Part shown: piece after piece, positions 5,519-46,412 of the stretch
Layout: the number at the start of each line of letters is the position of its first letter
How positions within the stretch are numbered: the first letter of the stretch is position 1
Assembly: GCA_026392035.1 (NCBI GenBank)
Contig: JAPLCX010000085.1
Location: 1,335 to 65,334, forward strand
Direction: 5' to 3'
DNA: 64,000 nt
Source: Candidatus Auribacterota bacterium
GTDB taxonomy: Bacteria > Auribacterota > Tritonobacteria > UBA1439
Made by a program: the position numbers and the translations under genes
The notes under the pieces: generated by a model
Seen by the model: the letters and a program-made list of their open reading frames with translations, nothing else
Told to the model about the DNA's origin: nothing
The model's database searches: none

Positions 5519-7480
5519 ATGAAAATGAGGTACATTGCCACCCTTTTAACGCTCCTGAGTTTGGTGCTGGTCACGCTCATGAGTCGGACCGGCGTGTTCA
5601 GGATGTATGAAGATAAGACGATTGACTCCCGATTCTCCTGGCGCCACAGGGTGCGGGGGCCGGTCTCGTGCCCCGATATCCGCATCATAGGGATTGATGA
5701 CCAGACGCTCATCGCGCTGGGCGGGCGGTGGCCGATCCCCTGGCGCTGGCACGCCCTCCTCTTCGAAGCGCTCTCCGACAACCTCCCCGCGGTGGCCGCT
5801 TACAATATTCTATTCCCCTCCGCCGAGGGGCAGGAGAAGAACGACGAAGAACAACTCGTGGAGGCGACGCAGCGGCTCGGCGATGTAGTTTATCCCTACT
5901 ATTTTGAATTTGCGGAAGCGGGACCCGCACGCGCCGAACCACCGGCTCCTTCTGCCGAGCGCGCGGCTGACAGGAAAATGCTGCAAAAATATGCGCTCAC
6001 CGACGTGGAGGGCGACGTTGGGTCGCTCCCACGAACGGCCGAGGTCACCATTCCGGTAGCGCCGCTCGCCGCACATGCCGCGCTCGGCTTTGCGAATGCG
6101 CAGGGGGACGAGGCAGACGGCGTGGTGCGGCGGATGCCGCTCGTCCTCGGCTTCGAGGGCAGGGTCTATCCCTCGTTCTGCCTCACGGCAGTCCTCCGCT
6201 ACTACAATATAGCGATCGAGGATGTCCATGTCGCGCTCGGCAATCGCGTTGAATTCGATGTCCCTGAGGGTCCTCACGTCTCGATCCCCATTGATACACA
6301 GGGGAGAATGTTCATCAACTTCACGGCCAACTACAATGAATTCAGCCACAGCGTATTCTCCCAGGTGGTGCAGTCCTTCGCCCGCCGCCAGAAAGGCCTG
6401 GGCGCGCCGCTCGACCTCTCAGATTTTGAGGGGAAGCTCGTGCTCGTAGGGCTCACGGCGACCGGCGTCATAGAAGCCTACACGAAGCCGACCCCGCTTG
6501 ATCCCGAGAGCCCCTTCCTCACCGCCCAGGCGAACGCGCTCAGTACGATCATCTCCCGCTCATTCCCCCGGCTTCCGGGGTTCTGGGCAGTGACCGGCCT
6601 CCTGCTTCTCCTGGGGGCTGCCGTGAGCCTGATCACCTCTTCAATGAAGGCCGCAACGAGTTTGGTACTCTCGGCGATCTGCCTCTGCATTTTCATCGCC
6701 ATCTCGTACTGGCTCTTCTTCTTCAAGACGATCATCCTGCCCCTCGTCTCCGGAGGATGCATGGCGGTCCTCACCTATACCTTCATCACCTCATACCGCT
6801 ATGCCACTGAGGAGCGGCAGAGGAGGTTCTACCGTGGCGTGCTGGGGAAGTACCTTTCACACAACGTAATGGAGACAATCCTACAACATCCCGCCGAGCT
6901 CAAACTCGGGGGGGAACGCAAGGATATGACCGTGCTCTTTGCTGACGTACGGGGCTTTACCAAATTCTGTGAACGGAGCCCCGTCGAGGAGATCGCCCCG
7001 CGGCTGAATGAGCTCCACGAGAAGATGACGCAGATCATCTGGAGGCACGATGGCACGCTGGACAAATACATGGGAGACGGGATCATGGCATTCTGGGGGG
7101 CGCCGCTCCCGCAGAAGGACCACGCGCGCAGGGCGGTCCTCGCGGCGATTGACATGATGGCGGAACTCACCCGGATGCGCCCCTCATGGGAATCGCGCGG
7201 GATAGAACCCTTCTCCATGGGGATAGGCATCAATACGGGGACAATGGTTGTCGGGAACATGGGATCGAACGAGTTCTGGAACTACACGGTTCTGGGAGAC
7301 GAGGTGAACCTCGCCGCCCGTCTCGAGGGTCTCACTAGAAGCTATCAGGTGGATGTGATAGTATCAGAATTCACCTATCGCCTCGTGCGCGACGTTGTGG
7401 AGGCCCGACTGCTCGGCGAGGTAACCGTGAAGGGGAAAGAAAAGCCGGTGGTGGTCTACGGGTTGACCGGGAAGAGGTGA
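5519..7480 (+). CDS. CHASE2-domain class III adenylate/guanylate cyclase
   Basis: CHASE2 (IRIIGIDD, DGVVRR, LVLVG), three TM helices, cyclase motifs FADVRGFT, DKYMGDGIMA, GDEVNLAARLE. Confidence 0.92.
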   Translation: MKMRYIATLLTLLSLVLVTLMSRTGVFRMYEDKTIDSRFSWRHRVRGPVSCPDIRIIGIDDQTLIALGGRWPIPWRWHALLFEALSDNLPAVAAYNILFPSAEGQEKNDEEQLVEATQRLGDVVYPYYFEFAEAGPARAEPPAPSAERAADRKMLQKYALTDVEGDVGSLPRTAEVTIPVAPLAAHAALGFANAQGDEADGVVRRMPLVLGFEGRVYPSFCLTAVLRYYNIAIEDVHVALGNRVEFDVPEGPHVSIPIDTQGRMFINFTANYNEFSHSVFSQVVQSFARRQKGLGAPLDLSDFEGKLVLVGLTATGVIEAYTKPTPLDPESPFLTAQANALSTIISRSFPRLPGFWAVTGLLLLLGAAVSLITSSMKAATSLVLSAICLCIFIAISYWLFFFKTIILPLVSGGCMAVLTYTFITSYRYATEERQRRFYRGVLGKYLSHNVMETILQHPAELKLGGERKDMTVLFADVRGFTKFCERSPVEEIAPRLNELHEKMTQIIWRHDGTLDKYMGDGIMAFWGAPLPQKDHARRAVLAAIDMMAELTRMRPSWESRGIEPFSMGIGINTGTMVVGNMGSNEFWNYTVLGDEVNLAARLEGLTRSYQVDVIVSEFTYRLVRDVVEARLLGEVTVKGKEKPVVVYGLTGKR

Positions 7481-7555
7481 CCTCTTGAACCAGTCTAGTG
7501 TCCCTAATGTTTCTCTATATTTGATTTTTGGTCACATGGTCTAGTTTTTGCATTC

Positions 7556-7646
7556 GTCATTCCCGTCCCGCTAAGCGGGAGGAATCCAGAATAGCAGATG
7601 GACTCCTGCTCCCCGATTTATCGAGGACAAGTTTCGCAGGAGTGAC
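7556..7646. repeat. Palindromic intergenic element (GTCATTCC...GGAGTGAC type)
   Basis: Terminal IR plus internal GGAATCCA/TGGACTCC arms and a nested GTCCCGCTAAGCGGGA palindrome. Confidence 0.6.
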
Positions 7647-7703
7647 ATAGCCAGTATCAGTAAATGTAAAGGCACGCATGAGAGAGTACACCAGCAGCGC
7701 GGC

Positions 7704-9059
7704 ATGGGGCAGCTGAAGGGTGACACGATGGGAGACGGTACCGCACTTATCAAGGAGAAGATCACTGAGCTCGGAGCCCTCCAAGATCAGCTCCGCGCGG
7801 CAAATCATAAGATCACCAGCCTGTCTGCCCTGGTCGAGATAAGCAAGATCATTAACTCGACCCTCGACCTGGACACCCTGCTCACCATGATCATGGAAAT
7901 CATCAAACAGGTGCTCAACGCCGAGAGCGGGTCGCTCCTCCTCATTGACGAGCGCGGCGACGAGCTGCTGTACAGGGTCGCCCTTGGCGCGAAGGGCAAG
8001 GAGCTGAAGGATAAGTTCAGGCTGAAGATGGGCCAGGGGATAGCCGGGTGGGTAGCGATGCACGCCGAACCGCTCCTCGTTCCCGACGTGAGCCAGGACA
8101 AGCGCTTCGACCCCACGACGGACGAAACACTGGGTCATAAAACGCGCTCCATCCTGTGCGTGCCGCTGCAGGTCCAGGGAAAGACGCTGGGGGTGCTCGA
8201 GGCGATCAATTCAAAGAGCCCGGGCGGTTTTTCACACGACGAGATGGAGTTGTTCCTGGCGTTCTCGAGCCAGGCGGCCGTCGCCCTGGAGAGCGCGCGC
8301 ATGCACGCGCGCCTTCTCGAAAAACAGCATTTCGAGCACGAGCTCCAGATCGCTCATCAGATTCAGCAAAACTTCCTCCCCTCGTCATTTCCGAAGATTC
8401 CCGGGGCGAAGCTCTACGCAAGGACCGTGCCCGCATGGGAAACGGGCGGTGATTTTTTCGATGTCGTGGAAATGGGAGGGGGTCGGATCGGCGCGGTGGT
8501 CGGCGACGTGTCGGGGAAGGGCGTGCCGGCGGCGCTCTACATGGTGAAGGCGCTGAGCGAGTTCCGTTTTCGCTCCCCGGGGACGCTGGGCATTGACAGG
8601 ATGCTCGAGGCGCTCAACGAGAGTCTCTTCGAGCACAGCACGAGCGGCATGTTCGTCACGCTCCTCTACGCCGTGGTGGACAGCGCCGCGCGCACACTCT
8701 CCTACGGCAGCGCCGGCCACCTGCCGATGATACGTAAGATTGGCGGAGCCGGCGCCATTGAGTTCCTCGACCAGGCAACGGGCATACCGCTCGGCATCAC
8801 CCGCGGCGCGCGCTATACGGTGCACACGTCAGCGCTTGAAAAAGGCGACCTGCTCTTTCTCTACACCGACGGTATCATTGAGGCGCGGGACAGGAAGGGG
8901 CATGAATTCGGCCTCGCGCGCCTGAAGCGTCTCCTCTCCTCTGAACGGGCAGCGGGGCCTGAGGAGATTGTGAAACGGGTGTTGCGGGGGGTTGAGCGCT
9001 TCGCAAAGGGGATGCCCCAGCACGATGACCTCACGGCAATGGCGATTAAGATCGGGTAG
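7704..9059 (+). CDS. GAF + PP2C (SpoIIE/RsbU-like) serine phosphatase
   Basis: GAF domain, then ELQIAHQIQ, GGDFFD, DVSGKG, YTDGI, HDDLT. Confidence 0.92.
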   Translation: MGQLKGDTMGDGTALIKEKITELGALQDQLRAANHKITSLSALVEISKIINSTLDLDTLLTMIMEIIKQVLNAESGSLLLIDERGDELLYRVALGAKGKELKDKFRLKMGQGIAGWVAMHAEPLLVPDVSQDKRFDPTTDETLGHKTRSILCVPLQVQGKTLGVLEAINSKSPGGFSHDEMELFLAFSSQAAVALESARMHARLLEKQHFEHELQIAHQIQQNFLPSSFPKIPGAKLYARTVPAWETGGDFFDVVEMGGGRIGAVVGDVSGKGVPAALYMVKALSEFRFRSPGTLGIDRMLEALNESLFEHSTSGMFVTLLYAVVDSAARTLSYGSAGHLPMIRKIGGAGAIEFLDQATGIPLGITRGARYTVHTSALEKGDLLFLYTDGIIEARDRKGHEFGLARLKRLLSSERAAGPEEIVKRVLRGVERFAKGMPQHDDLTAMAIKIG

Positions 9060-9062
9060 GCG

Positions 9063-9506
9063 ATGACCATGAAACAGATACCACAGGACATAATTTCAGT
9101 TACCATCCCGAGCAATCCAAAATACCTGCGGGCGATTCGTGCCCTCGTGGACGAGGTGACGTACGAGATGGGATTTTCGGCACAGGCGAGGAGCGAGGTG
9201 ATCCAGGCCGCCATCGAGGCATGCACGAATGTGATCAAACACAGCTACGAGGGGAATTTCCACAAAAAGATCATACTCATCCTCAAAGAGCTGCCCGACC
9301 GCCTTGAGGTTATCATCAAGGACCTCGGTAAAAAGGTGCACCCGGCGCGCATCAGGCATCGGGACCTCCATGACGTGAAACCCGGCGGTCTTGGCGTGTA
9401 CATCATCAAGTACTCCATGGATATGGTGTGGTACGACATGACTCCGAGGAAAGGGACAGAACTGAAGATGGTCAAATTCCTGAAGAAAGCGAAACATCCC
9501 CGCTGA
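9063..9506 (+). CDS. Anti-sigma factor Ser/Thr kinase (RsbW-like)
   Basis: EACTNVIKHSY, D.G, GGLGVYII, GT motifs of HATPase_c_2. Confidence 0.9.
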   Translation: MTMKQIPQDIISVTIPSNPKYLRAIRALVDEVTYEMGFSAQARSEVIQAAIEACTNVIKHSYEGNFHKKIILILKELPDRLEVIIKDLGKKVHPARIRHRDLHDVKPGGLGVYIIKYSMDMVWYDMTPRKGTELKMVKFLKKAKHPR

Positions 9507-9846: not shown

Positions 9847-10035
9847 ATGAAAGAGATCTGTGAGTACTGCTTCAGCGAACTGGTAGTGGAAGACGAGAAA
9901 AGAGAAGGCAACCGCAAGTTCGTTTGGAAGAGATGTTCGAATGAGAACTGCGGGGAAACATTTCTCTTCGTGGAGTACCTCTGGCAACTGAACCTGGCGA
10001 ACTGCCAGTCCTTCCAGGTCGTCGCCAGCGGGTGA
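9847..10035 (+). CDS. Small zinc-ribbon protein (62 aa)
   Basis: CEYC ... CSNENC; AGGAG RBS. Confidence 0.6.
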   Translation: MKEICEYCFSELVVEDEKREGNRKFVWKRCSNENCGETFLFVEYLWQLNLANCQSFQVVASG

Positions 10036-10056
10036 TTCCCCGTGTAGCCCGCCCGC

Positions 10057-10252
10057 CTGCCTACGTCAGGCAAGTCCCAAACTTGCCCGCCAGAGGCGGG
10101 TGTCAAATGTCAAATAAATTCTAAATCCCAAATTCCAAAATTCAAACCATTTGCCTGCCTGCCGGCAGGCATGGATTTTGTCATTTGTCATTTTTTAGGA
10201 CGCTGCCCCTCTCCCTTCCCCCCTTTCGCAAAGGGGGGTTAGGGGGGGATTT
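10057..10252. repeat. Composite palindrome/heptamer repeat; near-copy at 41616-41816
   Basis: About 115 bp shared with 41616-41727: CCTGCC..GGCAGG, CCCGCCAGAGGCGGG, AAATCCC units, then a CCCCCTTT..AAAGGGGG hairpin. Confidence 0.8.
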
Positions 10253-10267
10253 GCTCAGGGTGCGCCC

Positions 10268-11041
10268 CTATTTTTCCCCTTTCTTCTTCCTGATCTCCCC
10301 AAGTGTGACCTCAAGAATCCCTCGCTCACGCAACGCCTCATTCGCCAGGGACTGATAATCCTCGCCCCTGCCCCTCCAATCATAGCAGATATTGATCGTC
10401 TTCCTGAGGAGCATGGCCTCATTCACAAGCTCCTCCGGGACGACCCGCTTAAATAGCCTTGCGTAGCGGCCGGAGACCAGATCCATAATGGTTGTCCCCT
10501 CCGCGAGGCGCCCTTCCCTGTTGATAAGCCCCCGGTCGAAAAGCTCTTTCAGGAGCGCCGGCATCCTGGGTTTTATCATCAATTTTTTTATAAAACCCTC
10601 TATCATACCTCCCACCCTCTTCTGAATCTCCTTATCCACTAAAGAAACAATAATGGCGCTGATCTCCTTCTGCATCTTTTCACTGTAGCGATGGGGCGCT
10701 TTCCCCGAGATGGTGTTTTTCAACACATCGACGGGGGAGATCTTTATCGGAAGCTTCATCATCTCCCTGCCCCGCTCCTTGATAATGTAATGCATTTCAA
10801 CGGTCACCCCTTCCAACTCCCTTATGAGCCTCTTCCTCTCCTCCGGCGCAACAGCGGCGATGACCTTCCGGCAATGCTTCTCCATATCGAGGAGGAGATT
10901 CAAAACAGCCGGTCCGAGTTGGGGGAAGAAAATGGATGAAAATTTGTAAAGCGCCGCGGCCTTGTCGCTGTCGAACAGATCTGAATTGACGTAGAGCGGC
11001 GAAAAAAGTTCGGCAGGAGCGTTCAATAGAGATGGTTTCAT
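10268..11041 (-). CDS. Hypothetical protein (257 aa)
   Basis: Long ORF with natural composition; no family recognised. Confidence 0.6.
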   Translation of the reverse strand: MKPSLLNAPAELFSPLYVNSDLFDSDKAAALYKFSSIFFPQLGPAVLNLLLDMEKHCRKVIAAVAPEERKRLIRELEGVTVEMHYIIKERGREMMKLPIKISPVDVLKNTISGKAPHRYSEKMQKEISAIIVSLVDKEIQKRVGGMIEGFIKKLMIKPRMPALLKELFDRGLINREGRLAEGTTIMDLVSGRYARLFKRVVPEELVNEAMLLRKTINICYDWRGRGEDYQSLANEALRERGILEVTLGEIRKKKGEK

Positions 11042-11071
11042 GGTTGATGCCGGAGTAAAGCATTATATGTT

Positions 11072-11094
11072 GTAACTGGCTCCTGAGCAGTTAC
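11072..11094. repeat. Collapsed GTAACTG...CAGTTAC element end
   Basis: GTAACTGGCTCCTGAGCAGTTAC; last 17 nt identical to 3697-3713. Confidence 0.65.
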
Positions 11095-11101
11095 GGGGAT
11101 T

Positions 11102-11728
11102 TTACACATTGTAAATATCCCCTATCTTTCTGAATGGCAGCCGATAGATAATATAGATGATAATAAAATCATCCTTGAGCAGCTCTTCCAGCCCGTGGCG
11201 CACCCCCATGAACACCAGCGGCGCCTCGCCATCCTGGAGCGTGCTCTTGATCCTCCCCGCGATAAACTCGTCCCGTTGTTTCATCAGTTCCGCACTCTCG
11301 GCCCTGTACCGCTCCAACGCCGCGGCATGATCATGGGCGGACGCGATAAACCTGGTGAGGCAATCATATTCCTTGATCAGCAACTGCTGATCCTCGGTGC
11401 CTTCGATCCGCGCCCCATTATTCAATAAATCAAGAATCAGTTGGTGATTCCGGCTCCCCTTCTCGGCAAGCTTCGACACAACCTCCCTCTCCATCCCGCA
11501 CACAGGCAGGCTGTCCTGGTAAATTCTCATAGAAGAAAAAACAACCTGGGTTTCATGAATCTTCTTGTATATCCCATCCCACATGTCTTTCACTGACTTG
11601 TCGTACTCGTTTCCCGGCTTATCCGCGTGTTTTCCGCCCCCGCTTGCTTTCAACGAGAAAACGATATCCTCGCTCTCCCGATGGGTATGAAGAACGGGAA
11701 CATATAAAAGATTGAACGGTTTGATCAT
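11102..11728 (-). CDS. Uncharacterised receiver-associated protein (paralogue of 47488-48126 and 46026-46412), possibly TraB/GumN-like fold
   Basis: Shared motifs YVPVLH, IYQDSLP, EGTED, RD.FIA.RI..TL, LVFMG..H. Confidence 0.75.
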   Translation of the reverse strand: MIKPFNLLYVPVLHTHRESEDIVFSLKASGGGKHADKPGNEYDKSVKDMWDGIYKKIHETQVVFSSMRIYQDSLPVCGMEREVVSKLAEKGSRNHQLILDLLNNGARIEGTEDQQLLIKEYDCLTRFIASAHDHAAALERYRAESAELMKQRDEFIAGRIKSTLQDGEAPLVFMGVRHGLEELLKDDFIIIYIIYRLPFRKIGDIYNV

Positions 11729-12129
11729 TGTTCGCCTTTTCTTTCGGACGCCAGGGCCTCGCTCACCACCCGCTTGACCGTTTCGATATTGAAAGGCTTG
11801 CTGATGTATTCATAGACATTCAAATCAGCCGCCTCTCTCGCCGTAAAGGCGCTGCCGTATGCGGTAAGGATTATCACTATAACATCTCTATCAACTTTCC
11901 TGATATTGCGAAGCGTCTCCATGCCGCCCATGCGCGGCATCTTCAGATCGAGAATGATCACATCCGGCTTGCTCTCGCCGTACCGCTCCAGCCCCTCAAG
12001 CCCGTCCTGAGCGGTAACGACGCCATATCCTTCATTGCCCAACAGTTCCTTAAATAACGAACATATGTCCGGTTCGTCATCTATTACAAGAACCTTATAC
12101 TCCTGTTTTTTATCTGCTTTCTTTTTCAT
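11725..12129 (-). CDS. Single-domain response regulator
   Basis: VLVIDD, D(LKMP), T(A), KPF. Confidence 0.92.
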   Translation of the reverse strand: MKKKADKKQEYKVLVIDDEPDICSLFKELLGNEGYGVVTAQDGLEGLERYGESKPDVIILDLKMPRMGGMETLRNIRKVDRDVIVIILTAYGSAFTAREAADLNVYEYISKPFNIETVKRVVSEALASERKGEQ

Positions 12130-14608
12130 AACCGCCTCTCTTTTCTATGGGTAACATAATGGTTACCGTTGTTCCCCTGCCTTCACCGTCGCTCTGAACG
12201 GTCATATCACCGTCGTGAGACTTGACTATGCCGACGCACACCGACAGCCCGAGCCCGGCGCCCTTCCCAACCTCCTTGGTGCTGAAGAACGGATCGAACA
12301 CCTTGTGCAAATCCTCTTTTTTTATCCCCACCCCACTGTCCTGGAATATAACGCGAAGCCAGTTGCCTTCCCTCGCCGTGGTAATTTTCAATACCCCCCT
12401 GCCATTCATGGCCTGGCAGGCATTGAGCGCCACATTTATAAAAACCTTCGATAACGCCTCCCGGTTAACAAAGACACAGGGGACATCCAATAAATAATCT
12501 TTTTTCAACGCTATGTGCTCAAGCGATGTCTGCCGCCCGGTTAACTCCATAGCCTCATCCACAACCTCATGCACATCCACTGGCGCCAACTGAAGGCTGT
12601 ATCCCCTCCCGCATGCAAGCAGGCTGCTCACAATCGCCCTGCAACGATCGGCGTTGCTCGCCACCTTCTCAAGCGCGTCCCTCAGTTCTTTGCGCTCGAA
12701 TTTGTCCTGCCCCAGCTTGCTCAACGCCAACTGGCTGAAACCGATCACACAGGCGAGCGGGTTATTGAGCTCGTGGCCGGCCCCCGCCACAAACGTGCCT
12801 ACGGCCGCCAGCCTCTCCGCTGTCATGAGCCGTCTCTCCATTCCCTTTTGCGTGGTAATGTCCCTTACCGTTGCCTGGACGATTACCTTTCCGTCTTGCT
12901 CCATCCTGGTCAGGAGTACGGTGGCGGGGAACTCCTCGCCGTCGAGGCGCTTATGCGTCCACTCGAAATAATTGGAGCCCTCGCGCATGGCTGTCTGGAT
13001 CATCTCCCTGGCCTTTTCGGCGGAAGCGCGCCCGTCCGGCTGCCGTTCGGGCGATAGATCCCACGGCCCCAGATTCGAGAATTCCTCCGCGTTCCTCGCC
13101 TTGAACATCTCCATCGTTGCACGGTTGCCGGAGGTGAACTTCCATGACGGAGGTTCAATGATCATGATAGCGTCACGGGAACTCTCGAAGAGGTTGCGGT
13201 ACTTGCTTTCACTTTCCCGCAGCGCCACTTGCATACGATACTGCTCTGTCACATCATGAAAGACCAGCACCACGCCGAGAATACGGCCGTCCTTATCGCG
13301 GATGGGTGCGGCGCTGTCGGCAATCAGATACTCCGTGCCGTCGCGGGCAATCAGCATGGTATCATTAGACAGTCCGATAATACCGGCTGTTTCCAGAACA
13401 CGCTTGACAGGATCCGGTGACGGCTGGCGAGTACGGGCATCTATAATGCGGAAAACATTGGACAGGGGACTCCCTTTAGATTCAAGCAGCGTCCAGCCAG
13501 TCATTTTCTCGGCCACGGGATTCATGCGCACGATCCTCCCATCGGTATCGACGGAGATGACCGCGTCGCCAATGGAATGCAAAGTAATGGCCATGTCTTC
13601 CTCACTCTTCCGCAACGCCTCCTCCGCATGGGACTGTTGGATGACAAGCGCAACGGCGCTGCTGAGTCCGTCCAGCATTTCGTCTTCAGCAGACCGCATG
13701 GGATGTTTGGAGAAAAGACTCAGAACACCTATCGCTTCACCGCCGGGAACCCTAAGCTGGTATCCTGCGAACGACACGAGTCCCAGATTGCGCGCCCATT
13801 CGTGGTTGTGGACATGGGGATCATGCTGCACGTCATTTGTCAGGAACTTGTGATCTTCGCCAGACGCGATGCGTCCGATTTTGTAACAGCCGAAGGGGAC
13901 GCGGTGGTGCGCTTTGCCGTCCAGGTGGGTGTAGCGGCCGGAGCTCGCCACCAAATGCAAACACCGGTCACGGTAGCGGCATACATGAGGCCCTTCTCTC
14001 ACTTCGGCATGGATGCAGTCCCGTTCACAAAGATCTCCGGGCCGAATCAGCCATATTCGACAAAAATCGGCGTCAAAGAGCCGGACAACGCCATCGGTTA
14101 TAGTTCTTAGTTTTTCATCAAGCAATGCCGGCGCAAGCAGCGAATGCTGGAGCACGCTGACACCATGCTGCCACAGCAACATTTTGCCATGTTCTTCCTC
14201 CAGCTTTTTCAGCTCGGTGATATCTTTGGCAATATGTACCGTGCCCGCTATCTCTCCCTTATCGTCAAATATAGGCGATACCGTAACCAAAAGAGGTATG
14301 CCTATATTTTTATCGTCCACCTCCTCGGTATGCGGCTTTTTGTCTCGCAGCGTCTTTTGATGCGGGCAATCGGGCCAAGGTTTATCGGACTTATGCAGGA
14401 TTTCATAACACTTCTTTCCTATCACCCCTTCGGCCTTTAAGTGTAATGCGCTTATAAGCGCCGTGTTGGCCTTAATTATCCTGCTTTCGTTATCCAAGAT
14501 GAAAACAAAATCCGAGATGGAGTTAAGTATGAGCTCCCACTCCTCGGCCTGCTGTTTGACTTTCTCCCCGGAATTTTTACGCTCGGTGACATCCATGAAA
14601 ACACCCAT
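12110..14608 (-). CDS. PAS-GAF-PAS-PAS sensor histidine kinase, probably 5'-truncated
   Basis: HELNNP H-box, N box, DSGVG, GLGL; begins abruptly at a PAC motif (GVFMDVTERK). Confidence 0.88.
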   Translation of the reverse strand: MGVFMDVTERKNSGEKVKQQAEEWELILNSISDFVFILDNESRIIKANTALISALHLKAEGVIGKKCYEILHKSDKPWPDCPHQKTLRDKKPHTEEVDDKNIGIPLLVTVSPIFDDKGEIAGTVHIAKDITELKKLEEEHGKMLLWQHGVSVLQHSLLAPALLDEKLRTITDGVVRLFDADFCRIWLIRPGDLCERDCIHAEVREGPHVCRYRDRCLHLVASSGRYTHLDGKAHHRVPFGCYKIGRIASGEDHKFLTNDVQHDPHVHNHEWARNLGLVSFAGYQLRVPGGEAIGVLSLFSKHPMRSAEDEMLDGLSSAVALVIQQSHAEEALRKSEEDMAITLHSIGDAVISVDTDGRIVRMNPVAEKMTGWTLLESKGSPLSNVFRIIDARTRQPSPDPVKRVLETAGIIGLSNDTMLIARDGTEYLIADSAAPIRDKDGRILGVVLVFHDVTEQYRMQVALRESESKYRNLFESSRDAIMIIEPPSWKFTSGNRATMEMFKARNAEEFSNLGPWDLSPERQPDGRASAEKAREMIQTAMREGSNYFEWTHKRLDGEEFPATVLLTRMEQDGKVIVQATVRDITTQKGMERRLMTAERLAAVGTFVAGAGHELNNPLACVIGFSQLALSKLGQDKFERKELRDALEKVASNADRCRAIVSSLLACGRGYSLQLAPVDVHEVVDEAMELTGRQTSLEHIALKKDYLLDVPCVFVNREALSKVFINVALNACQAMNGRGVLKITTAREGNWLRVIFQDSGVGIKKEDLHKVFDPFFSTKEVGKGAGLGLSVCVGIVKSHDGDMTVQSDGEGRGTTVTIMLPIEKRGGYEKESR

Positions 14609-18121: not shown

Positions 18122-18514
18122 TCAACCACTTTTTAGAGTCTTATTTATAATGCTGCTCAGGATAAGCAATAATTCTTCTGCCTCACCTAACTGCCAATCA
18201 AGTTCTCCTCTATCCTCCGGCTCCCTCACCAAATCCACCTTTTTTATCAAGCGCAGCCAGTGTCTTGACTCTCGCGCCTCCCTCCTGGCAATTCCCATTT
18301 TGTTCACAAAATCTTTCCTCGTAAGAGCTCCATCCGCTTCTTCCATATTCGCGCCGATCGAACCGCTTGCCCTGATTACCTGCTTCCCGTACTCTATCAA
18401 AGCCTGGCTTTTGTCCAACCTGCTTATCAGCCTCGCAACCCTCGCTGCAAACTCCAGGGCTCTATCATAAATGTCAAATTTTCTTCCTATTGTCATTTGT
18501 TTATCATTTGTCAT
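18122..18514 (-). CDS. Four-helix-bundle protein (TIGR02436/IVS-like) flanked by inverted heptamer arrays
   Basis: QVIRASGSIGANMEEA, F..K..IARREARES..WL; real start may be ATG 18496. Confidence 0.88.
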   Translation of the reverse strand: MTNDKQMTIGRKFDIYDRALEFAARVARLISRLDKSQALIEYGKQVIRASGSIGANMEEADGALTRKDFVNKMGIARREARESRHWLRLIKKVDLVREPEDRGELDWQLGEAEELLLILSSIINKTLKSG

Positions 18515-18576
18515 TCTAGTAGTTCGTCTCTTCCTGTGTCTCGACTCTTCTCCTGTTTGTCATTTGAAATTTGTCA

Positions 18577-19332
18577 TTAGTACTTGTCTGTCTTTATCAC
18601 CAGATTCACGAAATTGAACGGCGGGAGCGTGCCCACATATTTAAACTTAACAGCCTCGCCATATTTTTCCACAAGCCCTTCGACCGCCCTATCAAACTCC
18701 TCTTCGCGTTTTTCCTCAACCAGGAAGGCCGCATTCAGGATCATCCGCTCCCCATACGTGGCATTGGTCTTGGTCTCCAGCGCGACGGGTGTGAGAAATT
18801 CCATTATCTTCTCGCGATATGCCTCCCGCTCCTTCCCGAGCGCCTCCTCAACCATCCTGCCTATTTCCATGCGCTGATAATGGGTTTTATCCGCCGGCAG
18901 CGTCGCGATCTTCTCCTTGGTCCGCCGTATATGCTCATATTTTTCCAGAATGGACGGATAAATAAATTCTTCCTTGAACACCGCCTTGAGACCGAGCTCC
19001 TTTTTCCCCTCCATCTGCCGCAACATCTGCGCGAATCGGTCGTGCTCCTTCTCCAGTATCCTCCGCACCTTGTCCTCGCTCTCCGCGATGGTGCAGAACC
19101 TGACGGGCAGCACCGTGTGATGCTTCATTACCTCTTCGATCGCGCGCTCATGTGCGATCGTGTTTTCCCGCGATATCCTGTATTCCTTGACCGGGGAATT
19201 GCTGACCACGGCGGCGACGTCATTGACGCCGAAGCTCCGCACCTCATCCCCCCTGCCGCCGATCCCGACAGGGCCGAAGGCATCGGGCTCTCCAGCCGCG
19301 ATTATACAATAGATATACTTACCCTCTTTCAC
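18577..19332 (-). CDS. GvpL/GvpF family protein
   Basis: GKYIYCII, AHERAIE, VLPVRFCT, GTLPPFNF. Confidence 0.92.
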   Translation of the reverse strand: MKEGKYIYCIIAAGEPDAFGPVGIGGRGDEVRSFGVNDVAAVVSNSPVKEYRISRENTIAHERAIEEVMKHHTVLPVRFCTIAESEDKVRRILEKEHDRFAQMLRQMEGKKELGLKAVFKEEFIYPSILEKYEHIRRTKEKIATLPADKTHYQRMEIGRMVEEALGKEREAYREKIMEFLTPVALETKTNATYGERMILNAAFLVEEKREEEFDRAVEGLVEKYGEAVKFKYVGTLPPFNFVNLVIKTDKY

Positions 19333-27728: not shown

Positions 27729-28106
27729 TTATCCTGCAACTACGCCTATCCCCCTGCATTTTGAACAGGGAAGACCGCATCCTTTCTCCCGGCCTCTTCC
27801 TTTGCAGGAAAGGCATACCTCAACCTTCTTGGTATGCACGTTTACAACGCCTTTTCCACGGCAGACAATACAGGCAAGGTCGGGATTCAGATGCGATTTC
27901 CCCGTACCATTACAATAAGCGCATATCACCGCAGGCGGTTGAATATTTATAGTCCCGACGCCTGAACAAACAAAACAGCTTGTGCTTTTCTTGGAAGGCA
28001 TAAACCCTCTTCCGCCACAAAATCCACATCTATAGACGTGTTTACTTAGGACTTCTCCTCTCCTGCCTGCCTTTTGACTTTTGAAATCAAAGGTTTTCCA
28101 CATCAT
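27729..28106 (-). CDS. Stand-alone DnaJ-type zinc-finger protein
   Basis: Six CxxCxGxG repeats. Confidence 0.85.
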   Translation of the reverse strand: MMWKTFDFKSQKAGRRGEVLSKHVYRCGFCGGRGFMPSKKSTSCFVCSGVGTINIQPPAVICAYCNGTGKSHLNPDLACIVCRGKGVVNVHTKKVEVCLSCKGRGREKGCGLPCSKCRGIGVVAG

Positions 28107-35212: not shown

Positions 35213-35419
35213 TTACGCCGCTGACGCGGTAAGGCCGATCGCCTCGGCATACTTCAGGTACGTCTCGACTGATGCAACCACGACCCTGGCTTCAACAGCG
35301 AGCAGCTCAATACCCACCAACGACACTCTCACCCAGGCATCAACCACGATGCCCTTATCCAGTATCCGGTCGATAACCTCAACCAGGCTGGATGAACCGA
35401 TCGTTTTCTCTACTGCCAT
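35213..35419 (-). CDS. gvpA: Major gas vesicle protein GvpA (copy 2)
   Basis: [55 protein letters not shown]. Confidence 0.98.
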
Positions 35420-35523: not shown

Positions 35524-35730
35524 TTACGCTGCCGACGCGGTCAGGCCGATTGCTTCGGCATACTTCAGGTACGTCTCGACTGATGCCGCCACGATTCTGG
35601 CTTCAACAGCGAGCAGCTCAATACCCACCAACGACACTCTCACCCAGGCATCAACCACGATGCCCTTGTCCAGTATCCGGTCGATAACCTCAACCAGGCT
35701 GGACGATCCGATCGTCTTTTCCACTGCCAT
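35524..35730 (-). CDS. gvpA: Major gas vesicle protein GvpA (copy 1)
   Basis: Same as copy 2 except I46/A48; GGAGGTGA RBS before ATG 35730. Confidence 0.98.
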
Positions 35731-35814
35731 TTGACTCACCTCCCTTCACTTAGTATTCCGCTTTGGACTGAGGAGCGGTCAACCCCGATTTTATACTCTT
35801 GATTCAATAGCGCG

Positions 35815-36028: not shown

Positions 36029-36044
36029 AGCAATAATCATGCCA
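36029..36044 (-). promoter_or_regulatory. sigma54 (-24/-12) promoter of the gvp operon
   Basis: Minus strand TGGCATGATTATTGCT. Confidence 0.75.
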
Positions 36045-39044: not shown

Positions 39045-39098
39045 TATGCCCCTTCGCAATACCCTTCGGAATTTCCGGCAGGCTTCTCCTCATTACCC

Positions 39099-40505
39099 TC
39101 ATTCTATTCCTTCACCATTGATAGATATACCCAGCTTCTTCATTTTCCGGTACAGCGCCTTCCTGTTCATCTGCAACATCTTCGCCGCTTTGACCTTGTT
39201 GCCTCCCGCCAGCGCGATTGCCTTTGTGATAAGACTCCTTTCAACCCTCCCCCTGATTTCCTCAAAGGAGGCGCCCTCGTTCAGATCCACCTTCAATTCC
39301 AGGCTTTCTTCCACATCGTTAACCGCCTCCAGCGGCGCCCCCGGCGCATCAGGGGACATGTACTCCGGTTCAATAACCCCCCCGCCGGCCATCAGGACGG
39401 CTCTTCTCACCATGTTCCTGAGCTCCCGCACATTACCCGGGTAACCATACTCAAGCAAATATCCAACCGCCGCTTTAGAAAAACCTTCCGCCTTTTTTCC
39501 GAACTCCTCATTCGCCTCTTTTAGAAAATGGTCGGCGAGCATGACAATATCGTCTTTCCTCTGACGGAGGGGAGGAAGCGCGATGCAAAACTCATTGAGG
39601 CGGTGGAAGAGGTCCTGCCGGAACTTCCCCCGTTTTACCCATTCCGTCAAATTGACGTTTGTCGCCACAATCACCCTCACATCAACATCCACACCCCTTC
39701 TCCCCCCCAGATGTTGTATCCTGCGTTCCTGAAGCGCCCGGAGCAGTTTCACCTGCACATTTTCGGTGAGATTGCCTACCTCATCCAGAAAGATGCTGCC
39801 TCCCTGCGCCTGCTCGAATTTACCCTCCTTCAGGGCATCCGCGCCCGTGAAGGCTCCCCGCTCATGGCCGAAGAGCTCGCTCTCTACCAGCGTCTCAGGG
39901 ATCGCTCCACAGTCAACTGCGACGAACGGCTTGTCCTTCCGCGGGCTGCTCTCATGAATCATCTGCGCGAGCAGTTCCTTGCCGGTTCCGCTCTCACCCT
40001 GGATCAGAACGGTCATAGTGGTCGGCGCGACAATTTTGGCCTGGCTTATCACGCGCATAATCACACTGCTTTTCCCCATTGACTGCTCCAGGGCGGTCTT
40101 CTCCCCCAATCTCTTCCTCAGTATCTCCACCTCTCTGCTCAGATAGTGCGACTGGAGCGCTTTCCTGATCACAAGGACCAGCTCCTCGTTATCGAACGGC
40201 TTCGTAATGTAATCGAACGCGCCCAATTTCATTGCTCGCACCGCGTCTTTCACCTCGCCGAACGCGGTAAGCATTATGATGATAAGATTCTTATCAATCC
40301 TCTTCATCTCCTCTAAAAGCTCAACCCCATCCATCCCGGGTAGCTTGATGTCCAGCAAGGCCAGGTCCGGCCTGACCTTCTTGACCTTTTTAATCGCGGC
40401 TTTCCCATCTTCAACAGCGAACGTGTCAAACCCTTCTTCCCTCAGGATATCAGAGAGGGTCATGCGCAAATCGGCGTTATCGTCTACAATTAAAATGGAT
40501 TCCAT
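39099..40505 (-). CDS. sigma54-dependent NtrC/AtoC-family response regulator
   Basis: REC, GESGTGKE, GAFTGA, LDEVG, PGNVREL, Fis-type HTH. Confidence 0.96.
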   Translation of the reverse strand: MESILIVDDNADLRMTLSDILREEGFDTFAVEDGKAAIKKVKKVRPDLALLDIKLPGMDGVELLEEMKRIDKNLIIIMLTAFGEVKDAVRAMKLGAFDYITKPFDNEELVLVIRKALQSHYLSREVEILRKRLGEKTALEQSMGKSSVIMRVISQAKIVAPTTMTVLIQGESGTGKELLAQMIHESSPRKDKPFVAVDCGAIPETLVESELFGHERGAFTGADALKEGKFEQAQGGSIFLDEVGNLTENVQVKLLRALQERRIQHLGGRRGVDVDVRVIVATNVNLTEWVKRGKFRQDLFHRLNEFCIALPPLRQRKDDIVMLADHFLKEANEEFGKKAEGFSKAAVGYLLEYGYPGNVRELRNMVRRAVLMAGGGVIEPEYMSPDAPGAPLEAVNDVEESLELKVDLNEGASFEEIRGRVERSLITKAIALAGGNKVKAAKMLQMNRKALYRKMKKLGISINGEGIE

Positions 40506-40623
40506 GGTTTAATCACCCTCCCCGCCTGCCTGTCGGCAGGCAAATCCCCCTCCATCCCCCTTTTTCAAAGGGGGAAGAAATCCCCTCTATTCCCCCCCTT
40601 TCGCAAAGGGGCTCTCTCAAAAC

Positions 40624-40724
40624 CGTCATTGCGAGAAGTCCCGCTGAGCGGGACGACGAAGCAATCTAGCATTTCCCGCGTAAAAGCGAGATTGCCACGC
40701 TCCCTGCGGTCGCTCGCAATGACG
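40624..40724. repeat. CGTCATTGCGAG...CTCGCAATGACG element inserted among CCCCCTTT hairpins
   Basis: Third copy, nested GTCCCGCTGAGCGGGAC; flanked by 40544-40612 and 40752-40768 G/C-tract repeats. Confidence 0.85.
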
Positions 40725-40769
40725 CAGTGAGCATTTTTGAGACAGCCTCCAAATGGGGAAGGGGGGATT

Positions 40770-40994
40770 TTAATAAACAGGCACAGGGATAAGCTTCTTG
40801 GGCTTAAGTTTTCCCTGAATAGCCCGATCCATTCGCTCGGCAATGCTGCCAGGAATCCAGATTTCGCCACATCGGCCGCAAACCTGGACGGATACATTTT
40901 CAAAAAGGTAAAGATGCCCCTTTACCAAGCGATCAATGGACGTTTTTTGCCTCCGCAGTTTTCCACCGCACACAGCGCACAAAGAATCTTTCAT
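40770..40994 (-). CDS. YgiT-type zinc-finger protein
   Basis: CAVCGG...ENV....CGRCGE. Confidence 0.85.
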   Translation of the reverse strand: MKDSLCAVCGGKLRRQKTSIDRLVKGHLYLFENVSVQVCGRCGEIWIPGSIAERMDRAIQGKLKPKKLIPVPVY

Positions 40995-41299
40995 GGCATT
41001 TTTTCCCTTCTGGTTTTAGGATCTAGCCACTTGCCAGGATCAAGCCAATGGACAGTAATAATATGAACAAGTTCTCCCACCGCGCAGAGAATATAAAGGG
41101 GCCTGCCATTGCGAACATAGCCTAGAATAAGACAGCTTGGATAAGGAGAATCCTTTGGATATGTTTCGATAATCTCACCTTCGGTGATGACTTTCTTTAT
41201 CTCTTTAAGTAAAATGCCTCGACCATCACAACGCCTTTGGCAGTGTTTAGTAATTTGATATTTGCCTTCGTTAATCTTTTGGCGAATGAGTTCAATCAT
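40991..41299 (-). CDS. DUF4258-domain protein (toxin-like partner of the YgiT finger)
   Basis: T.HC..R...R.I, GEIIE.YP.D.PYPSCLILG, IITV; 4-nt overlap with the finger gene. Confidence 0.8.
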   Translation of the reverse strand: MIELIRQKINEGKYQITKHCQRRCDGRGILLKEIKKVITEGEIIETYPKDSPYPSCLILGYVRNGRPLYILCAVGELVHIITVHWLDPGKWLDPKTRREKMP

Positions 41300-41544
41300 A
41301 GGGCATAGCCACAAAGCCAGATAAGCACTTCGCTCCGCTCGCGCTATCACCCTTCGGGCAGCCCTTTTTACAAAAGGGCTGGGTCGTCTCGGTGGTGTGC
41401 CTATCTGGTCCAGCCTCTTAAGTCGAAGGCTAAGGGGCTGTTGGAATTTCGATTTATTGAAATTCCGAGACGATGATTTATATCACATTTTGACAGGATC
41501 GACATCAGCAATCACCCCAACCTCAGAATCCTTGAGCGGATATA

Positions 41545-41816
41545 CTGCCCCCCTTTTGCATGGGGGAAGGGCAAATCCCCCTCCCTGCCTGCCTGTCGGC
41601 AGGCAAATCCCAAACCTGCCTACGGCAGGCAAGTCCCAAACCTGCCCGCCAGAGGCGGGTGTCAAATGCCAAATAAATTCCAAATTCCAAAATTCAAACC
41701 ATTTGCCCGCCTGCCTGTCGGCAGGCAAATCCCCCTCTGTCCCCCTTTTCCAAAGGGGGAAGAAATCCCATCCCACATCCTCCCCCCCTTTCGCAAAGGG
41801 GGGCAGGGGGGATTTA
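41545..41816. repeat. Composite palindrome/heptamer repeat cluster
   Basis: See 10057-10252. Confidence 0.8.
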
Positions 41817-41817
41817 T

Positions 41818-42429
41818 CTACCTTTGAAGCTGTCGTATGACTTTAAATATCTCTCTATCGGTGAATGGCTTGTCAATAAACACATAAGCGCCTTTGCGCC
41901 TTGCTTCCTCTCTTCTGTCTGCGCTTCCATATGCTGAGATAATAGCCGGGATTGTCTTAGGATTGCTCTTCCGCATTTGAGAGAGAACTGACATTCCATC
42001 ACCATCCGGCAGATTCAAATCCAGGAATACCAGGTCCGGGGAGTTTTTCTTCAAATAATTAATGCCTTCTCTCCTTGTGCGGGCGGTTTTTACATTATAG
42101 CCCTTACTGACCAGGGATTCAGATAAGAGAGCGCATATATCCTTTTCGTCCTCTATGAGCAATATATTTTTTATCTGCTTTTTCGAGGGCGGCATGCGTC
42201 TTACTCTTTCCCTTTTCCGCTCCTCCAACTGGCCTTTCTCCCACCGTTCGAAAAACGGCCTTAACTCATCGAGTTCTTCGGGCCTCCGCCAGCCGGAGAA
42301 GCCGCTCTTCCAGACAAGCACCTCCCCCTTTTTTATTTTTCCTGTGGAAATCCAATTCTTCAATCTTCCATCATACACCGTTCTATATATCTCCGCTCCC
42401 CTCCTGATGTCCCATTTTATTTCCGCCAT
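41818..42429 (-). CDS. GYF_2/DUF4339-like domain fused to a response-regulator receiver
   Basis: G.I.....VWK.G...W motif, then ILLIEDE, DLNLP, KPF. Confidence 0.75.
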   Translation of the reverse strand: MAEIKWDIRRGAEIYRTVYDGRLKNWISTGKIKKGEVLVWKSGFSGWRRPEELDELRPFFERWEKGQLEERKRERVRRMPPSKKQIKNILLIEDEKDICALLSESLVSKGYNVKTARTRREGINYLKKNSPDLVFLDLNLPDGDGMSVLSQMRKSNPKTIPAIISAYGSADRREEARRKGAYVFIDKPFTDREIFKVIRQLQR

Positions 42430-42468
42430 GATTTCCCTCCTTATTTTGCTGGCACGACCAGGTTTTAT

Positions 42469-43575
42469 TTACTCAGGTACAACTTCCCGGAACCTCGGCA
42501 GGGATATTGTAAACGTTGAGCCCTGCCGGGGCTTGCTCTCCACCTCTATAGTCCCGCCGTGACTCACGATGATCCCATAGCATACAGTCAGTCCCAAGCC
42601 CACGCCCTCCTTTTTAGTGCTGAAGAAAGGATCAAACAACCTGATAATATCGTTCTCCGGAATTCCCCTCCCTGTATCCTGTATCATCATCATGAAAGTC
42701 TCGTCGCTGCATTCGGTTGCGATAGTCAATATTCCCCTTCTTGGCATGGCCTCAACAGCATTTTTTATTATATTCAGAAAGACACGCTCGATATATTCCC
42801 TATCAACACTGATCTTTAACAGACCCGGGGTGAACTTTTTAACCACCTTTATATTCTGCGATTTTATCTTTGGCCTGACAGATTCCAGCGCGCTATGCAA
42901 TATCTTATGCGGATCATGCAAGCGAAGGTCCAGTTTGGACGGCCTTGCGCAATTGAGCAGCTCCGTGATCAGGAAGTTAATCCTTTCCGTATTTCTCACA
43001 ATTACTTCAATATATCTGGATGCAGCACCTCCCGGTTTAAGGGCCTTCTCAAGCGCTCTCACAGACATGGCAACATTCGTGAGAGGGTTTCTTATCTCAT
43101 GGGCAATGTTAGCGGAGATGCGGCCTGTGAACGCGAGTTTCTCGGATTTTACAAGTTCATCCTTCTTGTCACGCAGCTCCGCGTAAGATTTTTCGAGCTC
43201 TTCCCTGGACCCTGTGAGTTCTCTGATCAGTTCCTTTATTTTCCTGATGTTCCTGGCAACCAAAATAACATCTGATATCAGCTCTTCCCCTTTTTTAGCG
43301 GCGGACACATTAACACTCACGGGGATTTCATTATTCCGCCTGTCCCGATATATCATCTCACAATCCCTGATCGGGACTTTTTCCATAATCCCGGCGAGAG
43401 AAAAATCCTTGCACACCTTTCTCATCGGCCTGTTCAACAAGGCCTTCCTGTCATATGCCAGAAGATCCAGGGCCGCGCGGTTGATTTCTCTGATCCTCCC
43501 CTCCCTGTCCAAAATAATCACGCTGTCAATCAACTCTTCAATAGAGATGCATTGCTTCCCAGGATCATTCATCAT
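42469..43575 (-). CDS. PAS sensor histidine kinase
   Basis: AHEIRNPL, N box, DTGRG, G.GLGL. Confidence 0.93.
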   Translation of the reverse strand: MMNDPGKQCISIEELIDSVIILDREGRIREINRAALDLLAYDRKALLNRPMRKVCKDFSLAGIMEKVPIRDCEMIYRDRRNNEIPVSVNVSAAKKGEELISDVILVARNIRKIKELIRELTGSREELEKSYAELRDKKDELVKSEKLAFTGRISANIAHEIRNPLTNVAMSVRALEKALKPGGAASRYIEVIVRNTERINFLITELLNCARPSKLDLRLHDPHKILHSALESVRPKIKSQNIKVVKKFTPGLLKISVDREYIERVFLNIIKNAVEAMPRRGILTIATECSDETFMMMIQDTGRGIPENDIIRLFDPFFSTKKEGVGLGLTVCYGIIVSHGGTIEVESKPRQGSTFTISLPRFREVVPE

Positions 43576-43618
43576 AACCTGCTCCCTCTAGAGTATTATT
43601 CCGGCAACTCCCCATGAG

Positions 43619-45769: not shown

Positions 45770-46050
45770 TCACTGCAGTGCTTCACTTTTGAAGTCTGTA
45801 TACTCACCACCCCTTTGCCGAGGCATACGAGACAAGTGATATTCGAGCCAGGCGGTGATTGCCCGCTCCCTTTGCAATATACGCACTTGATCGCCGGCGC
45901 TTCTGTCATGACAACTCCTCTCCCCCTGCAAATATAGCACCGGACATTTTTTCTCCCCCTGATGACACCGATACCCCCACAAAAACCACAATTAAACATT
46001 GATCTCTTATAAATCCGCACCTTCTTCATTTGGGGTCGGGTAAGCTCCAT
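45691..46050 (-). CDS. Stand-alone DnaJ-type zinc-finger protein (third paralogue)
   Basis: Six CxxCxGxG repeats. Confidence 0.82.
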   Translation of the reverse strand: MELTRPQMKKVRIYKRSMFNCGFCGGIGVIRGRKNVRCYICRGRGVVMTEAPAIKCVYCKGSGQSPPGSNITCLVCLGKGVVSIQTSKVKHCSDCGGRGRARGRVLPCLRCKGKGVVRA

Positions 46051-46412
46051 TTTAGGGTCGCATCTTCCAGACCTTCTTTGAAAAGCAATCCGTATATGAG
46101 ATAGGTGATCTTCAGCCCTTCTAAATAATTATGTACCGCATGCTCCATCCCGATAAAAAGGAGGCCAATTTCACCATCTGACAGGGTATGCTTTATCCGC
46201 TCGCTGATGAACACATCCCGCTTTATAAGTAACTCCCTCTCTGTATCCTTATAGCGCTGCACAGCCGCCGATCTCTCTTTAACGCCGGAAGCCTGGTAAA
46301 GGCGCTTCAGATTGTTGTATTCCTCAAGCAATAATGATGGATCCTCCGTACCTTCAATCATTGCTCCCATTTCGAGAAGATCCATGACGAGCCTATAGTT
46401 CGTGAATCCCAC
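46026..46412 (-). pseudogene. C-terminal half of a receiver-associated paralogue, cut at the RAYT repeat
   Basis: Aligns to 47488-48126 from about GSPNH onward; N-terminal ~85 aa absent. Confidence 0.75.

Follow-up and report, generated by a model that had tools for sequence, protein, structure and literature searches.

The window examined here, 64,000 nucleotides (nt) of contig JAPLCX010000085.1 from a Candidatus Auribacterota bacterium, carries an island of gas-vesicle (gvp) genes that is flanked by two modules, in each of which the gene for a protein that we call X is coupled to the gene for a lone receiver. X is an accessory gene of gas-vesicle clusters, to which it is tied by co-location and phyletic co-occurrence, and its sequence and genomic context suggest that this protein of approximately 205 residues, almost confined to such clusters and usually paired or fused with a receiver of its own, probably acts as the enzymatic output of a signalling switch that controls buoyancy.

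X genes and their place in gas-vesicle clusters

Three copies of X lie on the minus strand of the window. Together with their receiver partners and the genes next to X1, they are as follows (aa, amino acids; ORF, open reading frame):

11102-11728, minus: X1, 208 aa, full-length, with the motifs PVLH, YQD, EGTED, RD..IA.RI and G..H; family profile E 1.7e-72
47488-48126, minus: X2, 212 aa, full-length paralogue
46026-46412, minus: X3, 128 aa, 5'-truncated paralogue
11725-12129, minus: RR1, lone receiver and partner of X1, 134 aa; PF00072 E 2.5e-30, no further domain; in the clade of X-adjacent receivers described below
48127-48588, minus: RR2, lone receiver paired with X2; residues 27-136 match PF00072 (E 3.8e-33); in the same clade
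12110-14608, minus: sensor histidine kinase of the PAS/GAF type, 832 aa; HEL..P H-box and HATPase motifs in the translation
10268-11041, minus: ORF directly downstream of X1, 257 aa

Over 201 residues, 38% of positions are identical between X1 and X2 (E 5e-48), and X3 aligns with residues 88-205 of X2 at 58% identity (E 4e-48); these three are the only copies in the host genome (2.8 Mb, 96% complete). The sequence-only reading had singled out receiver-X pairs at 12129-11102 and 48522-47488 and a half copy at 46412-46026, and the ORFs, the PF00072 scores and the pairwise identities all agree with it. The true start of RR2 is likely the internal ATG at 48522 (MKKKILIVDD). A match of X1 to YjhX_toxin/PRK13687 (E 0.067 and 0.0035) lies far below the cut-offs and was dismissed as chance.

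RR1 and X1 overlap by 4 nt, and the gap between RR2 and X2 is 0 nt, which points to translational coupling in both modules. Because the 3' end of the kinase gene overlaps the start of RR1 by 20 nt, and RR1 in turn overlaps X1, the three genes appear to form an operon headed by the kinase. The ORF at 10268-11041, for which neither a Pfam or NCBIfam match nor a tblastn relative in 82 X loci was found, may be the last (fourth) and lineage-specific gene of this operon. It is the kinase-RR1-X1 and RR2-X2 modules that lie on either side of the gvp island.

A scan of one genome per species confirmed at least 547 stretches as encoding a relative of X. The 80 loci that were kept span Zixibacteria, Ignavibacteria, Omnitrophota, Acidobacteriota, Planctomycetota, Desulfobacterota, Nitrospirota, Beta- and Gammaproteobacteria and other groups. 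When the Gvp proteins of the window were used as tblastn queries, gvp genes were detected within 10 kb of X in 65 of 82 loci. The remaining 17 are mostly short contigs or have X at a contig end, and in 11 of these 17 genomes gvpA-family genes lie in another part of the assembly. The phylum of the window was represented by 41 genomes; X occurs in six of seven gvpA-positive genomes (PF00741) and in none of the 34 gvpA-negative ones (hypergeometric P = 7/C(41,6), approximately 1.6e-6). Gammaproteobacteria were sampled evenly (400 genomes); four of these have gvpA, and in all four X is within a few kb of gvp genes. X is thus found in 10 of the 11 gvpA-positive genomes sampled in the two groups, and the linkage to gvp loci that had been anticipated from the window alone turns out to be very strong.

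The family is large and consists of unnamed proteins. Homologue searches returned 212 matches with X2 as the query and 730 with a member from Marinobacter, all of them unnamed or called 'hypothetical protein' and none with a precomputed Pfam domain. A profile of 62 members matched at least 1,251 representative clusters (50% identity) at E<=1e-3, a number that falls to 807 if E<=1e-10 is required and to 342 if E<=1e-30 is. Among the matches listed, the nearest relatives of the window copies come from genomes of the Planctomycetota-Verrucomicrobiota-Chlamydiota (PVC) group, from Candidatus Euphemobacter (Auribacterota) and from a metagenome-assembled genome labelled 'Chlamydiota'. X has no above-threshold match to any Pfam or NCBIfam model. 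The curated models of named Gvp families (GvpG, K, O, L/F, N and the NCBIfam gvp models) include no relevant Pfam or NCBIfam match to X at E<=1.

Seventeen columns are invariant in the 62 sequences, namely P8, H11, W47, Y67, Q68, D69, P72, N91, G107, E109, R151, D152, F172, H177, I192, L195 and P196 (X2 numbering). The residues that had been noted as conserved from the three window copies recur among them (P8, H11, Y67-Q68-D69, G107-(T108)-E109, R151-D152 and H177). X proteins begin directly at the first strand and lack a signal peptide, so they are presumably cytoplasmic.

Some copies of X are found in unusual surroundings. A plasmid collection holds four of them, all annotated 'hypothetical protein'. 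On plasmid pOA238_160 of Octadecabacter arcticus 238 (L083) the X homologue (39092-39709) stands alone amid transposases of the insertion sequence (IS) families IS5, IS6 and IS66, and the 24.5-kb stretch around it (12 kb on each side) contains no annotated gvp gene. In Marinobacter gelidimuriae (L065) a partial duplication at 18318-19257 comprises the 3' end of X and a second gvpA; the intact X-gvpA pair lies approximately 8 kb upstream. A gammaproteobacterial gvp cluster (L095, genome G236), which does not resemble that of Serratia, has a short X ORF of 155 aa, which covers profile positions 26-193, and two ORFs of 578 aa each (5708-7444 and 9984-11720) that are likely copies of one insertion sequence.

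Receivers next to X and fused to it

The position of the nearest receiver was recorded for the 80 loci:

directly upstream of X: 40 loci
directly downstream of X: 15 loci, in 13 of which it is the N-terminal receiver of a sigma54 activator
downstream of X past one small ORF: 15 loci; this ORF is Hsp20-like at L007, where it was read
no receiver adjacent to X: 8 loci
contig end too near to judge: 2 loci

A receiver-domain gene is thus the immediate or next neighbour of X in 70 of 80 loci, in one of three arrangements. In arrangement (a), to which both window modules belong, a receiver gene precedes X upstream of gvpA, often with a kinase and a sigma54 activator before or after the pair. Arrangement (b), found in Zixibacteria, Ignavibacteria and Desulfobacterota, is a tightly coupled series of a GvpF gene with a J-domain, X, an Hsp20-like gene, a receiver gene and a further GvpF gene. 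In arrangement (c), seen in Beta- and Gammaproteobacteria, X stands beside the sigma54 activator gene without a dedicated receiver. X immediately precedes the activator gene in most of these loci (G236, for example) and immediately follows it in Marinobacter.

A tree of 89 lone receivers places the X-adjacent ones of arrangements (a) and (b) in a single clade, where they make up 54 of 55 leaves (support 0.90). The remaining lone receivers from these loci branch outside it, including those located just upstream of gvpA and those that follow the kinase in arrangement (c). A single clade of X-adjacent receivers implies that the receiver and X genes travel together as a conserved module of two genes. 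The second, phylogenetically distinct lone receiver is encoded immediately upstream of gvpA in several phyla (L031, L032, L034, L045, L049, L003, L015 and others), and many clusters therefore possess two different single-domain receivers.

In some lineages receiver and X are joined in one polypeptide. P0205 (338 aa) contains a complete receiver (residues 7-118) followed by X (residues 133-336), in frame on contig L090. The fusion protein of L092, which is the same gene as that of L058, has 339 aa and is 69% identical to P0205, a divergence which indicates that the architecture is inherited and not an assembly error. A third fusion protein, in L038, has 334 aa and a different linker, and a fourth, P0208, is cut at its 5' end. 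There are thus no fewer than three diverged fusions of receiver and X, yet they are a minority, as most X genes are separate from but adjacent to a receiver gene. Fusion to a receiver is a classical sign of an output domain, and the earlier proposal that X is the output of the receivers gains support both from these natural fusions and from the dedicated receiver clade. Long 'X' ORFs in L066 and L082 were also considered as fusions and were rejected because they reflect upstream read-through in GC-rich DNA. In a protein of 286 aa, P0250, the C-terminus of GvpF/L is joined to X; this may be a genuine fusion, or the predicted gene may be truncated by the end of a contig on which GvpF and X are neighbours.

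Against X being a receiver output speak the approximately 10% of loci in which it has no adjacent receiver and the proteobacterial clusters in which it has no dedicated one. The latter are informative in another respect, too. X proteins of arrangement (c) that lack a partner receiver, such as those of Marinobacter, still keep all five motifs, which suggests that X has an activity of its own to which the receiver is an added switch and which favours an output over a pure phosphatase. These X genes do, however, still adjoin the receiver of the activator, and this leaves some room for the latter.

As such a phosphatase, or as a phosphate-sink partner, X would bind receivers (its own or that of the sigma54 activator), speed the hydrolysis of aspartyl phosphate and tune the signal that passes from the kinase to the activator of gvpA. 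We regard this as unlikely, although X nearly always adjoins a receiver-domain gene (in proteobacteria that of the sigma54 activator itself), the several kinases and receivers of the cluster could compete for phosphoryl groups, and X possesses conserved acidic, amide and histidine residues as expected of a hydrolase. The fusions, kept stable down to 69% identity, rather resemble receiver-output pairs such as CheB, for which the joining of a receiver to a hydrolase is typical. Moreover, X is without an adjacent receiver at some loci, and its fold and motifs differ from those of the receiver phosphatases: to our knowledge they match none of CheZ, CheC/CheX, Spo0E and Rap.

Likewise unlikely, in our judgement, is a role for X as a constitutive factor in gas-vesicle assembly or maturation, be it a processing peptidase or a quality-control hydrolase working with the chaperones of the cluster, such that its adjacency to receivers would reflect shared operon organisation only. 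Clusters of the type found in Zixibacteria, Ignavibacteria and Desulfobacterota do couple X translationally between the gene for GvpF with a J-domain and the Hsp20-like gene, inside the assembly operon; a representative of the family is the GvpF C-terminus-X protein P0250; and X is near-universal in the gvp clusters of the sampled lineages. However, the P0250 gene may have been truncated or predicted wrongly, and even in those clusters the dedicated receiver is encoded within one gene of X and belongs to the same clade as the receivers located upstream of it elsewhere. The receiver-X fusions, too, point to a direct functional link.

Probable relationship of X to the TIKI superfamily

The C-terminal part of X resembles that of the TraB_PrgY_gumN family (PF01963). 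X2 matches this family with 19.8 bits (E 7.9e-4), below the gathering threshold of 26.8, whereas X1 has no match to it. Among the 62 members, 24 match PF01963 below threshold (E<0.1, best E 2.8e-5), always on the C-terminal RD...GxxH stretch. By comparison, PF04187 (the ChaN family) is matched by one of the 62 and any other Pfam family by at most five. In an alignment of 38 TraB sequences (A2), built from the TraB protein of a related genome (L087), the X profile matches 35 proteins in one register over their RN..GxGH region. The sequence-only reading had recognised in X a C-terminal signature of the TraB/GumN/Tiki metalloproteins; the recurrent PF01963 matches bear this out, except that the genuine TraB signature reads RN..MA and not RD..MA.

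The AlphaFold model of X2 was obtained with a predicted local distance difference test score (pLDDT) of 87.5 and a predicted template-modelling score (pTM) of 0.81. When it was compared with the Protein Data Bank (PDB) by Foldseek, ChaN ranked first (2G5G; E 0.034, probability 0.80), HopBA1 fifth, and RRSP at positions 26 and 48. All three are listed as structures of the TIKI superfamily (PMC6254334), so the fold comparison that had been proposed with the prediction did not go against it, with one of these proteins at the top and the other two among the first 50. As a yardstick, a model of a genuine TraB protein (pLDDT 91.2) was subjected to the same search and also gave no match below 1e-3; its E-values against Ere proteins and BcR135 ranged from 0.006 to 1.5 (EreC 0.07; BcR135 0.2-1.5). 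Going by these models, scores of the size obtained with X are typical among true members of this divergent superfamily.

The superfamily has an alpha/beta fold in which helices flank a central parallel beta-sheet. Its active site consists of two histidines and two glutamates with a conserved basic residue, at the C-terminal ends of the core strands (PMC6254334). X has a set of this type, with two histidines, an aspartate, a glutamate and an arginine (H11, H177, D69, E109 and R151), all of them invariant in the 62 sequences. In the models of X2 and TraB the five catalytic motifs appear in the same order and on matching secondary-structure elements:

after the first core strand: X2, strand 2-9, then H11; TraB, strand 41-48, G47-H50
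after the second core strand: X2, strand 64-68, then D69; TraB, strand 72-75, then E76
after the third core strand: X2, strand 104-106, then G107-T108-E109; TraB, strand 171-174, then E176
last long helix: X2, helix 130-162, R151-D152; TraB, helix 238-263, R251-N252
after the fourth core strand: X2, strand 168-174, G174 and H177; TraB, strand 267-274, G274 and H277

The spacing from the arginine to the glycine is 23 residues in both proteins.

Several observations weigh against a common origin of X and the superfamily, and each of the remote-homology scores, taken singly, is below threshold. No member of X reaches the Pfam gathering score for TraB (19.8 versus 26.8 bits). Alignment of the X alignment with A2 by hhalign covers only 42 C-terminal columns (P 0.0026, probability 11%), a trustworthy N-terminal alignment was not obtained and the global mode failed; the N-terminal motifs of the two families are therefore matched by position and not by significant alignment. 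A profile search of the PDB sequences with the 62-member alignment produced chance matches only (E>0.4). The TM-scores of the Foldseek matches are low (0.38 and 0.33), none of the PDB matches has an E-value below 1e-3, and one acidic residue of X is an aspartate where the superfamily has a glutamate.

Since all sequence and structure scores fall short of the usual significance thresholds, X might be an unrelated alpha/beta protein that shares the R[DN]..A..I...G..H string with Tiki and TraB proteins by convergence or chance. We consider this very unlikely: three independent kinds of evidence converge on one superfamily, five motifs keep one order along corresponding strands and helices, at an identical spacing of 23 residues, and genuine members score equally weakly against each other. 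The homology of X to the Tiki/TraB/ChaN superfamily is remote but consistent, in that it combines the sub-threshold TraB matches, ChaN as the top Foldseek match and the five ordered motifs. At most, X is a new minimal sister family within the TIKI superfamily, and it is not part of PF01963 as defined. Because RRSP and EreB, both enzymes of the Tiki fold, work without metal (PMC6254334), X need not depend on a metal as had been proposed.

The least probable alternative is that X binds haem or a metal without being catalytic and so informs the receiver circuit of the redox, oxygen or metal status, for although its best structural match is the haem-binding ChaN, two histidines are invariant and gas-vesicle formation in Serratia responds to oxygen (PMC11778176), X retains the full catalytic-type set including the arginine and both acidic residues, whereas non-catalytic members of the superfamily such as PMT lack the 2His/2Glu motif (PMC6254334).

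Surrounding island, proposed role and known systems

The genes between and around the two modules provide the kinases, the activator and the gas-vesicle proteins among which X would act:

14985-36044, minus: gvp structural and assembly region between the two receiver-X modules, with two gvpA genes, GvpC-like genes, GvpN, GvpJ/M-like genes, two Hsp20 genes, ArsA, Cdc48 and five GvpF/L genes
35213-35419 and 35524-35739: gvpA genes
36029-36044, minus: sigma54-type -24/-12 candidate TGGCATGATTATTGCT, approximately 290 nt upstream of the first gvpA
39099-45769, minus: rest of the regulatory block on the X2 side, from Pfam matches and ORFs, with the following four genes
39099-40505, minus: NtrC-type sigma54 activator
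41818-42429, minus: receiver protein
42469-43575, minus: PAS-HisKA histidine kinase
43619-45769, minus: histidine kinase
45691-46050, minus: DnaJ-type CXXCXGXG zinc-finger protein downstream of X3, 119 aa; PF00684 E 2e-10
46416-47508, minus: IS200-like Y1 tyrosine-transposase unit separating X2 from X3, with an ORF at 46433-47449 (PF01797 E 6.8e-11)

One of the five GvpF/L genes encodes a J-domain; the Cdc48 protein is AAA+-like, ArsA is of the ArsA/Get3 type, the GvpJ/M-like genes number two, and the GvpC-like proteins are encoded between gvpA and gvpN. The position of the -24/-12 candidate fits control by the NtrC-type activator, whereas across the window as a whole the sigma54-type motif is not enriched (20 matches versus 28 expected). 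Small DnaJ-type CXXCXGXG zinc-finger proteins are encoded twice in the window (45691-46050 and 27729-28106) and recur immediately upstream of gvpN in many phyla. Just outside the island, on the plus strand (5519-9506), lie genes for a CHASE2-adenylate/guanylate cyclase, a GAF-SpoIIE (PP2C) phosphatase and an anti-sigma-type kinase with a HATPase_c_2 domain.

The transposase unit is bounded by perfect 25-nt inverted repeats (46416-46440 and 47484-47508; 100% complementary), the right one of which contributes the final codons and the stop of X2, while the homology of X3 starts right after the left one, at the equivalent of residue G88 in X2. X3 matches the family profile at positions 85-204 only. 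It lacks approximately 87 N-terminal codons and with them two of the five motifs (His and YQD), but retains EGTED, RD and G..H. Most likely, X3 is a remnant truncated by the transposase unit. The Y1 transposase ORF also bears a DnaA-C-like helix-turn-helix.

We give about an even chance to a model in which X is a receiver-gated hydrolase of the gas-vesicle regulon. X would be a peptidase or an esterase and the effector partner of a dedicated single-domain receiver. Phosphorylated by a sensor kinase of the cluster, the receiver would bind X and switch its activity, and where the two are covalently fused, as in some lineages, the protein would correspond to a CheB-like arrangement of receiver and hydrolase. 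X would hydrolyse a peptide or an ester bond in its substrate, which would be part of the gas-vesicle system, be it a Gvp protein or a regulator.

It is tempting to speculate further that X is a signal-gated protease that cleaves a component of the shell, such as the GvpC-like stiffening proteins or an exposed terminus of GvpA or GvpJ, but this more specific version is quite unlikely. If it were true, the phosphorylated receiver would allow the cell to weaken, collapse or remodel existing vesicles quickly, without waiting for their dilution by growth, and the first enzymatic route of gas-vesicle turnover would be known. Engineered protease-sensitive gas vesicles serve as acoustic biosensors, and the system would then be their natural counterpart.

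Research on gas-vesicle clusters treats them both as buoyancy organelles and as acoustic reporter genes, and the control of buoyancy is currently regarded as transcriptional. A receiver-gated hydrolase would add an enzymatic, post-translational layer to this control and a new type of output domain to two-component systems. X would then also be a gene to include, or deliberately to omit, when clusters are moved into heterologous hosts.

As far as literature and databases show, the X family is uncharacterised and unnamed. A literature search returned nothing that links gas vesicles with TraB or Tiki proteins, and X was not found under any name in published lists of gas-vesicle genes (gvpA, C, F, G, J, K, L, M and N; the Gvr regulators of Serratia). 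The gas-vesicle cluster of Serratia sp. ATCC 39006 follows the same logic: GvrA, GvrB and GvrC regulate gvpA there by means of a sigma54 activator, a kinase and a lone receiver (PMC4982088, PMC11778176), and GvpV, W, X, Y and Z as well as the unannotated Ser39006_001280 are without known function. X was compared with these Serratia proteins by gene position and published description, and it may correspond to one of them. In beta- and gammaproteobacterial clusters X is located directly upstream of a gvrA-like gene, which is the position of GvpY in Serratia. GvpY, however, is not conserved in other proteobacteria (Tashiro et al., PMC4982088) whereas X is, which argues against their identity, as judged by position and description. 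The receivers that follow the kinase in proteobacterial clusters, at the position of gvrC in Serratia, are outside the clade of X partners.

Among the solved structures of the TIKI superfamily, which include ChaN (2G5G), HopBA1 (5T09), RRSP (5W6L), EreB, EreC and BcR135, X fits the pattern of two histidines, two acidic residues and an arginine seen in RRSP and the Ere enzymes (PMC6254334). ChaN, by contrast, binds haem and is not an enzyme, and RRSP, a secreted toxin domain, has additional lobes. None of ChaN, HopBA1, RRSP, the Ere enzymes and BcR135 is tied to receivers or gas vesicles. With the TraB/PrgY/GumN proteins (PF01963; for example YbaP of E. coli and PrgY/TraB of Enterococcus) X has in common the C-terminal signature R-[ND]..[MI]A..I...G..H, a histidine after the first strand, acidic residues after the second and third strands and the order of these elements. 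X is smaller (approximately 200 aa versus 260-330 aa), with much shorter helical inserts, and unlike TraB it has neither a signal peptide nor a lipobox. It also differs in its motifs, which have PxxH for GxxH, Asp for the first Glu and RD for RN, and in its association with gvp clusters and receivers. CheB, a receiver joined to a methylesterase, has a catalytic fold unrelated to that of X and, compared here from general knowledge, offers a functional analogy only, that of a phosphorylated receiver joined to a hydrolase either in one chain or as a coupled pair.

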